Shown: positions 1 to 404 of the stretch, piece by piece
Layout of the letters: every line of letters begins with the position of its first letter
Numbering within the stretch: position 1 is the first letter of the stretch
Assembly: GCF_003334385.1 (NCBI RefSeq)
Contig: NZ_QOWN01000039.1
Length of the DNA stretch: 41,409 nt
Source of the DNA: Escherichia coli
Lineage (GTDB): Bacteria > Pseudomonadota > Gammaproteobacteria > Enterobacterales > Enterobacteriaceae
Strand: one strand, 5' to 3'
Program-made: the position numbers and the translations under genes
The notes under the pieces: generated by a model
Databases searched by the model: none
What the model saw: the letters and a program-made list of their open reading frames with translations, nothing else
Told to the model about the DNA's origin: nothing

Positions 1-108
1 TTTTTCGTCTTGCGACGTTAAGAATCCGTATCTTCGAGTGCCCACACAGATTGTCTGATAAATTGTTAAAGAGCAGTTGCGACGCGGCTTTCAGCTCACT
101 GTCGCGAG
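1..108 (-). other. 5' leader of an rRNA operon primary transcript (rrnD by context), including the boxA antitermination element at 56..75; the 16S gene lies beyond the window start
   Basis: Reverse complement of 56..75 is TGCTCTTTAACAATTTATCA (rrn boxA core GCTCTTTAACAA); the flanking sequence matches the conserved rrn leader as I recall it; sits downstream (minus strand) of the P1/P2 promoters. Confidence 0.8.
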
Positions 109-143
109 GTGGCGTATATTACGCTTTCCTCTTTCAGAGTCAA
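108..143 (-). promoter_or_regulatory. rRNA operon P2 promoter (-35 TTGACT at 138..143, -10 TAATAT at 116..121, minus strand)
   Basis: Reverse complement of 111..143 reads TTGACTCTGAAAGAGGAAAGCGTAATATACGCC, matching the rrn P2 sequence as I recall it, with a GC-rich discriminator. Confidence 0.8.
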
Positions 144-216
144 CCCTGAATTTCAGGATTTTTTTCTCTTCGTTGTTCCGACCATCCTGTGAAGTGTTTC
201 ACGTTGTCGTCTCAAC

Positions 217-252
217 GGAGGCGCATTATAGGGATCCCAATTTTTTGCACAA
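217..252 (-). promoter_or_regulatory. rRNA operon P1 promoter (-35 TTGTGC at 247..252, 16-bp spacer, -10 TATAAT at 225..230, GCGC discriminator)
   Basis: Reverse complement reads TTGTGCAAAAAATTGGGATCCCTATAATGCGCCTCC, a typical rrn P1 architecture. Confidence 0.75.
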
Positions 253-345
253 GTATTTTTTTGAACTTTTTTTCTGTTTGTTGTTTTTTCACCCTTTTTG
301 CTGCAATCGCACACAAAACGGTGCTTTTTTGCATACTAAAAGACT
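253..345 (-). promoter_or_regulatory. A/T-tract UP-element and probable Fis-site region upstream of rrn P1
   Basis: Phased A/T tracts immediately upstream of the P1 -35; individual Fis sites not resolved. Confidence 0.5.
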
Positions 346-404
346 TGCACAAGGCCAATAATGCCCCCAAAGTCATTAGTAAATCATTTATTGCTGAGGT
401 AAGT

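Follow-up and report, generated by a model that had tools for sequence, protein, structure and literature searches.

The first 404 positions of the window, that is, of the whole 41,409-nt stretch of Escherichia coli DNA analysed here, raise the question of what this DNA encodes. Three open reading frames (ORFs) overlap in it, one of which runs on into yrdA, and the same letters can be read as the control region of a ribosomal RNA operon, with yrdA beginning at its outer edge. The answer reached here, to which we assign a probability of about 97%, is that 1..404 is the rrsD-yrdA intergenic region of a K-12-like E. coli strain, with the rrnD control region on the minus strand and the start of yrdA on the plus strand; the ORFs 77..361, 189..404 and 212..376 are not genes, and the promoter of yrdA most likely lies at 345..373.

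Identity of the Region

A BLAST search with positions 1..1000 gave a match in every one of the 5,426 complete E. coli genomes; the top-ranking matches, annotated with yrdA and yrdB, reach 99.9% identity. An ungapped comparison with MG1655 (NC_000913.3, from 3428832) gave 8 substitutions in 41,409 bases; within 1..404, 403 of the 404 bases are identical, and the single difference is at position 265. The 16S gene is outside the window and its position was read from MG1655, where the 5' end of rrsD is 70 nt to the left of window position 1 and is followed by ileU, alaU and rrlD, which identifies the operon there as rrnD; a first-pass annotation, made from the letters of the window, had placed a 16S gene just beyond the window start, in agreement with this position.

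As for the choice among the operons, the 500 bases preceding each 16S gene of K-12, seven in all, were aligned with the reverse complement of 1..430, and identities were counted per segment. Against rrnD, the leader, P2, the P1-P2 spacer, the P1 core and the two segments upstream of P1 gave 107/107, 36/36, 72/72, 37/37, 23/24 and 128/128, respectively. In the leader (1..107), rrnH matches as completely as rrnD, with 92-102/107 for the remaining operons, and the P2 segment is identical, 36/36, to rrnD, rrnH and rrnE; leader and P2 are all that rrnH and rrnE have in common with the window. From the P1-P2 spacer outward rrnD is the sole match, with at most 48/72, 24/37, 14/24 and 52/128 in any other operon. 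Upstream of P1 the other operons diverge (8-14/24 and 31-52/128): positions 253..404 agree with rrnD at 151 of 152 bases, and with any other operon at no more than 14/24 plus 52/128. The operon is rrnD because it alone matches upstream of P1. The first-pass annotation had read 1..345 on the minus strand as rrn leader, P2, P1 and upstream A-tract/Fis region, and had named an alignment to the seven E. coli rrn promoter regions as the way to check it; that alignment bears the reading out and gives the operon its name.

The 171-base segment 180..350 was found in 5,426 of 5,426 complete genomes, with a median of 1 place per genome and a highest count of 3; it is single-copy in nearly all of them. 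Strains with a W3110-type rrnD/rrnE inversion exist, in which the rrnD promoter drives a hybrid operon (PMC5179076); the operon body lies outside the window, and such a hybrid arrangement cannot be told from the window alone.

The window is an entire draft-assembly contig, and it starts at its position 1 because the assembly broke in the seven-copy rrn repeat. Its right end lies inside tufA, a gene with a near-identical second copy, tufB.

The P1 and P2 Promoters

The rrnD P1 core occupies 216..252 on the minus strand, with the -35 element TTGTGC at 252..247, a 16-bp spacer, the -10 element TATAAT at 230..225 and a G+C-rich discriminator, GCGCCTCC, at 224..217. In this core, 37 of 37 bases agree with K-12 rrnD, and the heuristic sigma-70 score is 11.5 bits; each of the seven K-12 operons has its TATAATGCGCC motif unchanged, no variation is seen at 220..234 among 28 Enterobacteriaceae upstream sequences, and the -35 element is strongly conserved. 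The promoter had been placed at 217..252 before, and it is there; the start, which we take to be G216 by homology with rrnB P1 (discriminator of 8 bp), differs by one base from the earlier 217.

P2 (108..143, minus strand) has TTGACT at 143..138, a 16-bp spacer, TAATAT at 121..116 and a start at about 108. It has the top heuristic sigma-70 score on the minus strand, 12.3 bits, with P1 second, and it is the sole promoter found by a consensus sigma-70 scan. The earlier placement of P2 at 108..143 thus stands, with TTGACT-16-TAATAT at 143..116 and 36/36 identity to rrnD. The end-points of rrnD deletions in PMC5110994 are consistent with P2 transcription beginning 107-108 nt downstream of that from P1.

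Two further symmetric elements lie near the promoters. Just upstream of the P2 -35 is a palindrome, CCTGAAATTCAGG (145..157), alongside an A7 run on the rrn strand (T7 on the yrdA strand); it was flagged as terminator-like on the plus strand, folds as rrn-strand RNA with -8.4 kcal/mol (z-score -3.7), and among the seven K-12 operons is common to rrnD, rrnH and rrnE only. The second, the inverted repeat GTGAA-N4-TTCAC at 189..202 (P1 +14..+27), survives in 25 of the 28 Enterobacteriaceae sequences compared, including one compensatory change of A-T to C-G, and is predicted by RNA folding to form a 5-bp hairpin in the P1 transcript. With its flanks (188..203) it is also one mismatch from the CRP consensus TGTGA-N6-TCACA; five such one-mismatch matches were found against 1.3 expected, a count that is not remarkable. 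A hairpin appears at least as good a reading as a CRP site, since the conserved part is the inner GTGAA/TTCAC and not the outer T and A.

The Upstream Activating Region

The A-rich UP-element region of P1 (-40 to -60) corresponds to 256..276 on the minus strand and is strongly conserved, with an entropy of 0.25-0.7 bits among the 28 Enterobacteriaceae sequences. PMC5110994 cites Hirvonen et al. [quoted passage not shown] Three 15-mers in the window resemble the Fis consensus: one centred at P1 -71 (280..294), identified by its consensus score, with a T-tract core (285..289) that is conserved at 0.3 bits; a weaker one centred at about -100 (309..323), found with a relaxed consensus; and a third, GGCCAATAATGCCCC, centred at -144 (353..367), again from its consensus score, within which an ATAAT/ATAAA block is kept in most Enterobacteriaceae. 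In rrnB P1, Fis sites are known at these three positions, -71 being that of site I and -144 that of site III. All three 15-mers of the window, at -71, about -100 and -144, are predicted sites, identified as consensus matches. The centres of the A-tracts fall into two groups offset by half a turn, and no curvature is claimed.

Conservation across genera fades beyond about 319 (about -100 of P1) and returns solely at CTTGC (344..348), CAAAGTC (368..374) and the GAGGT that precedes the yrdA ATG.

Regarding position 265, it is A in the window and T in MG1655, as well as in every one of the 1,842 genomes that agree with the window at all other positions of 180..350. This private base lies inside the UP element and turns GATC, at P1 -47..-50, into GAAC (plus strand).

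The Leader RNA

The rrnD leader RNA downstream of the P2 start (1..107, minus strand) runs off the window towards rrsD, and is recognised from its identity to rrnD and rrnH. It holds boxA, the 20-mer TGCTCTTTAACAATTTATCA, read directly at 75..56 of the minus strand, exactly where the first-pass annotation had it (56..75); its core, TGCTCTTTAACAA, is at 75..63. The match is exact, and boxA is invariant in all seven K-12 operons. Among Enterobacteriaceae loci with contigs long enough to include it, 10 have the 13-mer at a distance of 326-331 nt from the ATG of yrdA; in 8 loci of other families the distance is 327-350 nt.

Directly upstream of boxA is a boxB-type hairpin (79..105, minus strand) predicted by RNA folding: the RNA 108..76 folds with -13.5 kcal/mol and a z-score of -2.5, and 4 of 200 shuffles fold as well. 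Hairpin and boxA, in this order, constitute a nut-like antitermination leader arrangement. A published RNase III cleavage coordinate, K-12 3428875, assigned to "intergenic rrsD-yrdA" (PMC5371410), corresponds to window position 44; the partner strand of the RNase III stem is 3' of the 16S gene, outside the window.

The Start of yrdA and the Overlapping ORFs

yrdA encodes a 184-aa hexapeptide-repeat protein of the gamma-carbonic-anhydrase family and occupies 405..959 on the plus strand, according to the K-12 annotation and the crystallised protein (PDB 3TIO). Its Shine-Dalgarno sequence, GAGGT at 396..400, puts GAGG five bases ahead of the start codon, ATG 405; GAGGT and ATG are conserved across genera, with an entropy of 0.6 bits. 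This ATG is about 152-153 nt from the outer edge of the P1 -35, which agrees with the distance of about 150 bp given earlier, and 189 nt from the P1 start.

Two plus-strand ORFs, both present as listed, compete with this start: ORF 189..959, with 256 aa and a GTG start, would extend yrdA by 72 codons (189..404), and ORF 77..361, with 94 codons and a TTG start, runs antisense across P2, P1 and the upstream activating region. The reading in which either is real, as a 256-aa YrdA from GTG 189 or as a 94-aa protein from TTG 77, can point to the fact that both frames are open in E. coli and in E. albertii, and that the 256-aa form is deposited for the source contig and about a dozen other assemblies. 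We consider it extremely improbable on several grounds. The extension is open in E. coli and E. albertii only, and is interrupted by in-frame stops in every other genus sampled: the stop is 1-46 codons upstream of the conserved ATG in 35 of the 38 loci of other genera, and 57-69 codons upstream in the other three. YrdA was crystallised as the short form, residues 1-183 of the 3TIO chain being residues 74-256 of the long ORF, and the alignments with 34 solved homologues all begin at residue 66 or later, which leaves residues 1-65 uncovered by any homologue or solved structure. The conserved GAGGT and ATG occupy 396..407, the curated K-12 start is 405, and an mRNA for either ORF would need to start inside or beyond the rrnD promoters, antisense to them.

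Coding statistics agree with this assessment. Codon log-odds were trained on the 55 annotated genes of the window, with yrdA held out; the score per codon is -0.35 for 77..361 and -0.25 for 189..404, both below every one of the 55 real genes (0.03-0.66) and below yrdA (0.28). In the 28 Enterobacteriaceae sequences, the entropy by codon position is flat, at about 1.0-1.16 bits, in the frames of 77..361, 189..404 and the minus-strand ORF 212..376, and none of these three frames has an excess of third-position substitutions; the first ten codons of yrdA (30 nt), instead, give 0.73, 0.43 and 1.15 bits at positions 1, 2 and 3. Finally, the exact product of 77..361 had no match in the protein collection searched. 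The true start of yrdA is ATG 405. The first-pass annotation had denied gene status to both ORF 77..361 and the 72-codon extension, and it was right on both counts: for the former, the frame is not conserved, periodicity is missing and the codon score is -0.35; for the latter, the frames are broken, periodicity is likewise missing, the codon score is low and no homologue covers it.

ORF 212..376 (54 codons, minus strand) crosses the upstream activating region and P1. That it encodes a real, lysine-rich small protein of 54 aa is argued by its annotation by the NCBI pipeline in some complete genomes, by a slightly positive codon score of +0.10, which is borderline and not decisive, and by a similar open frame in several genera, the "M-T-L" start region of which coincides with the conserved CAAAGTCAT block. 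Against this, about half of the genera have a disrupted frame or start, two strains of Citrobacter youngae differ in this respect, no Shine-Dalgarno sequence is visible ahead of it when the sequence is read, the C-terminal half merely translates the conserved DNA of the UP element and P1, the curated K-12 annotation does not include it, and lysine codons are expected on any A-rich strand. On the strength of the broken frames, the missing Shine-Dalgarno sequence and the origin of its C-terminal half, this ORF is judged an artefact, and we hold a real protein to be very unlikely.

Stop-free stretches cross the region in every species, and their frame and length vary by genus; the cause is the composition of the DNA, with one strand rich in T and the other in A. 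The ORFs 77..361, 189..404 and 212..376 are by-products of such sequence, in which stops are few.

With regard to public records, the exact 256-aa translation of 189..956, private base 265 included, is GenBank RCQ59162.1, deposited as a "gamma carbonic anhydrase family protein"; the long form is the deposited annotation of the source contig, a point that the first-pass annotation missed. It also missed ORF 212..376, the third artefactual ORF, the K-12 version of which is the RefSeq "hypothetical protein" WP_000172051.1 in some complete genomes. The curated MG1655 record has no feature annotated in 1..404.

Conservation of the 16S-yrdA Junction

A scan for YrdA in one genome per species gave 80 loci. 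For Enterobacterales, Vibrionaceae and Aeromonas, nearly every locus is on a contig that stops 12-880 bp upstream of the gene (most under about 680 bp), the pattern that results when an assembly breaks in an rrn repeat. In loci with longer upstream sequence, Rfam models identified a 16S gene beside yrdA and divergent from it in Pantoea, Providencia, Enterobacter, Salinivibrio and Enterovibrio; with the same models, no 16S gene divergent from yrdA was found in Pseudomonas. The divergent junction persists, then, as far as Vibrionaceae. Its geometry is nearly fixed: 29 of the 32 Enterobacteriaceae loci have TATAATGCGCC, the P1 -10 region, at 170-178 nt from the ATG of yrdA, and of the remaining three, one has it at 162 nt, one at 169 nt and one is without the motif.

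The Promoter of yrdA

Relative to P1, the stretch of about 150 bp ahead of the yrdA ATG spans -40 to -190, and any promoter placed there necessarily lies in that interval. The first-pass annotation held that the yrdA promoter must sit among the rrn upstream activating sequences; the geometric argument is sound, and the promoter itself was not located. The accessible portions of the genome-wide start-site and transcript-mapping supplements gave no experimental yrdA start site, and Mendoza-Vargas 2009 lists a yrdA 5'-RACE primer, AAGATCGCGGTATGGGCGTA, which is the complement of window 420..439.

We infer the promoter position from score and conservation. In 231..404 no plus-strand sigma-70 match rises above the level of shuffled sequence in heuristic score; the top one, TTGCAC-17-CAAAGT at 345..373, with a predicted start near 380, has 6.2 bits vs a median best of 8.8 bits in shuffles. 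Of 32 Enterobacteriaceae loci, 25 retain its two blocks at the 17-bp spacing; the Fis-III-like 15-mer at 353..367 overlaps it. It is a weak but conserved candidate, and most likely the yrdA promoter.

The competing possibility, for which the chances are close to even, is that yrdA is transcribed from another promoter, either with AATAAT at 357..362, or from a start farther upstream in the UP/P1 region, or by a non-sigma-70 holoenzyme, in which case the blocks of 345..374 would be protein-binding sites, for Fis (site III) or another factor. It is favoured by the score of the candidate, lower than the shuffle median, and by the fact that CAnAGT has a conserved C and a conserved G outside the -10 consensus, which is not usual in such an element; in addition, six Enterobacteriaceae loci that lack both blocks keep GATAAT/AATAAT at the Fis-III-like site, Serratia and Yersinia have, read by eye, a better TTGTAA-16-TAGTAT with CAAAGTC in its spacer, and the yrdA promoter was at one time credited with a sigma-32 ChIP-chip peak, later set aside as repeat-associated. 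On the other side, the block spacing is constant at 17 bp in those 25 of 32 loci, as a bipartite promoter predicts, and no alternative has a higher score; TTGCAC-17-CAAAGT is the candidate that we retain.

Two other proposals were discarded. Readings of CTTGC/CAAAGTC as sigma-32, sigma-E or sigma-54 elements failed by eye, the diagnostic CCCC run, GAACTT and TGGCAC being absent or not conserved in other genera. A promoter TTGAAC-17-TTTTTT at 261 has a -35 made by the private SNP and a -10 that is a plain T run.

A more speculative idea, which we rate as unlikely, takes TTGCnn-17-CAnAGT (345..373) as the yrdA promoter with the Fis-III-like 15-mer (353..367, P1 -144) in its spacer: Fis, while activating rrnD P1 from there, would occlude or remodel the yrdA promoter. 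If true, the expression of the gamma-carbonic-anhydrase-like YrdA would be coupled to rRNA synthesis. A shared control region under selection would fit the near-fixed distance from the ATG to the P1 -10, the persistence of the junction to Vibrionaceae and the geometry of rrnC-yieP discussed below.

Proposed Mechanism and Significance

The functions proposed for the elements of the region come from established work on rrnB and rrnD; the mechanism is textbook knowledge. By analogy with those operons, Fis-type sites and the A-rich UP element would recruit RNA polymerase to a strong, growth-rate-regulated P1 (start G216), and P2, 108 nt downstream of P1, would act as a second promoter (start at about 108). 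In the transcript, the boxB hairpin and boxA would assemble the Nus-factor antitermination complex, and the distal leader would pair with sequence beyond the 16S gene into the RNase III processing stem, with cleavage at window position 44; the 16S gene begins 70 nt past the window edge. On the opposite strand, yrdA starts at ATG 405 behind GAGGT, and its weak promoter must sit inside the upstream activating region of rrnD, the likeliest place being 345..373.

The main value of these results is in annotation hygiene: the 256-aa "YrdA" and the 54-aa "hypothetical protein" in public records translate rRNA promoter DNA.

Comparison with Known Systems

The closest relative is rrnD of MG1655, which has the same order of leader, boxA, P2, P1, UP region and yrdA start; it is 403/404 identical to the window and differs from it, within 1..404, at 265 alone.

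As for rrnB, the textbook model of the Gourse laboratory, the likeness includes the tandem P1 and P2, TATAAT followed by a GCGCC discriminator, the 16-bp spacers, an A/T-rich -40 to -60 region, Fis-like 15-mers centred near -71, -100 and -144, and a boxA and a distal leader that do not differ. The two are unlike at P1, where the -35 of rrnB is TTGTCA and its start base A, whereas the window has TTGTGC and G; the P1-P2 spacer and P2 of the window are of the rrnD/H/E type and match rrnB at 39/72 and 27/36, respectively. Farther upstream the rrnB sequence is unrelated to that of the window (32/128), and the upstream neighbour is the 3' end of murI, in place of the divergent gene present here.

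The geometry of the locus has its counterpart at rrnC-yieP, where the divergent start codon is exactly 189 nt from the P1 start, as it is for yrdA; the sequence upstream of P1 is unrelated (31/128), and so are the neighbour genes. At this distance from the P1 starts, neither yrdA nor yieP has room for a promoter outside the upstream activating region of the adjoining rrn operon. Also murI, hemG and gmhB end 77-86 nt upstream of the P1 starts of their rrn operons; it is usual, not exceptional, for an rrn upstream region to overlap the sequence of its neighbour.

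Inverted Repeats between the rrnD Promoters

Regarding the rrsD-yrdA intergenic region (1..404), in which the rrnD control elements lie on the minus strand, the sequence between the two promoters contains an inverted repeat, TGTGAAGTGTTTCACG (188..203), which spans +13 to +28 of P1, roughly 87 nt before the P2 start, and has one mismatch to the CRP consensus. Its inner part, GTGAA-N4-TTCAC, is conserved in 25 of the 28 Enterobacteriaceae sequences, and the perfect form, TGTGA-N6-TCACA, is found at the equivalent position in many genera. In the P1 transcript, the same repeat gives a 5-bp hairpin, for which one compensatory change occurs, in Shimwellia. 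The repeat may act as a protein site or as an RNA hairpin.

Directly upstream of the P2 -35 element, the palindrome CCTGAAATTCAGG (145..157) stands beside a seven-base A/T run (158..164); on the yrdA strand, the two together resemble a weak intrinsic terminator, while on the rrn strand the palindrome forms a hairpin of -8.4 kcal/mol, with a z-score of -3.7. This element is limited to rrnD, rrnH, and rrnE.

Sequence Differences from MG1655 and GATC Sites

Within 1..404, the only difference from the K-12 reference MG1655 is at 265 (A vs T in MG1655); it changes GATC, a Dam methylation site, into GAAC at P1 -47 to -50, inside the UP element. The A at this position occurred in none of 5,426 complete E. 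coli genomes, with a best identity over 180..350 of 99.4% (one mismatch), and the GATC is retained by nearly all the Enterobacteriaceae sampled; either a private mutation or an error in sequencing may account for the change. Most other genera have two extra GATC sites, aligned to about 305..309 and 316..320, which are absent in E. coli. Elsewhere in the window, seven other single-base differences from MG1655 occur, at 1138, 10576, 33035, 36758, 38181, 40854, and 41128; transversions account for five of the eight.

Annotation of the Contig

The window is a complete contig of a draft assembly, the 41,409-nt one bearing GenBank protein RCQ59162.1; its left end is in the rrn repeat and its right end in tufA. 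In the deposited annotation, YrdA is 256 aa long and starts at GTG 189, upstream of the ATG at 405. The upstream activating region of rrnD and P1 are spanned by a minus-strand ORF of 54 codons (212..376), which some RefSeq complete genomes, e.g., NZ_CP033250.1, list as the "hypothetical protein" WP_000172051.1; this is probably a spurious call. As for structured RNAs, the sole Rfam match at gathering level in the window is Alpha_RBS (RF00140; 13608..13719, minus strand, 102.7 bits), upstream of rpsM, as expected for the alpha ribosomal-protein operon.

Transcription around yrdA

The only minus-strand CATAAT within yrdA is at 553..558, and it agrees with the -10 hexamer of the published yrdA antisense RNA; mutation of this -10 left yrdA::lacZ expression unchanged (Dornenburg et al. 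2010, PMC2912661). This antisense transcript would head in the direction of the region upstream of rrnD. Wade et al. 2006 placed a sigma-32 ChIP-chip target at the "yrdA promoter", and both critics and the authors themselves later discounted it as located in repeated sequence (PMC2996942, PMC3738151); its K-12 coordinate, 3427148 in U00096.2, corresponds to about 295 in the window, the conversion being approximate. At its other end, yrdA is convergent with yrdB, with a 25-nt overlap (935..959), and the pair is among the candidate "excludons" of PMC12288877.

Conservation of the Junction and Comparison with Other rrn Operons

Among the yrdA loci compared in other species (L011-L079), the divergent 16S-yrdA junction is kept across Enterobacterales and as far as Vibrionaceae (Salinivibrio, Enterovibrio), and it was not found in Pseudomonas. 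In 29 of 32 Enterobacteriaceae loci, the yrdA ATG and the P1 -10 element are 170-178 nt apart.

Compared with the other operons, those of the rrnB type have a different small hairpin at the position of the 188..203 repeat of rrnD. At the rrnC-yieP junction, the start codon of yieP and the rrnC P1 start are exactly 189 nt apart, which equals the spacing between yrdA and the rrnD P1 start; however, the intervening sequences are unrelated.
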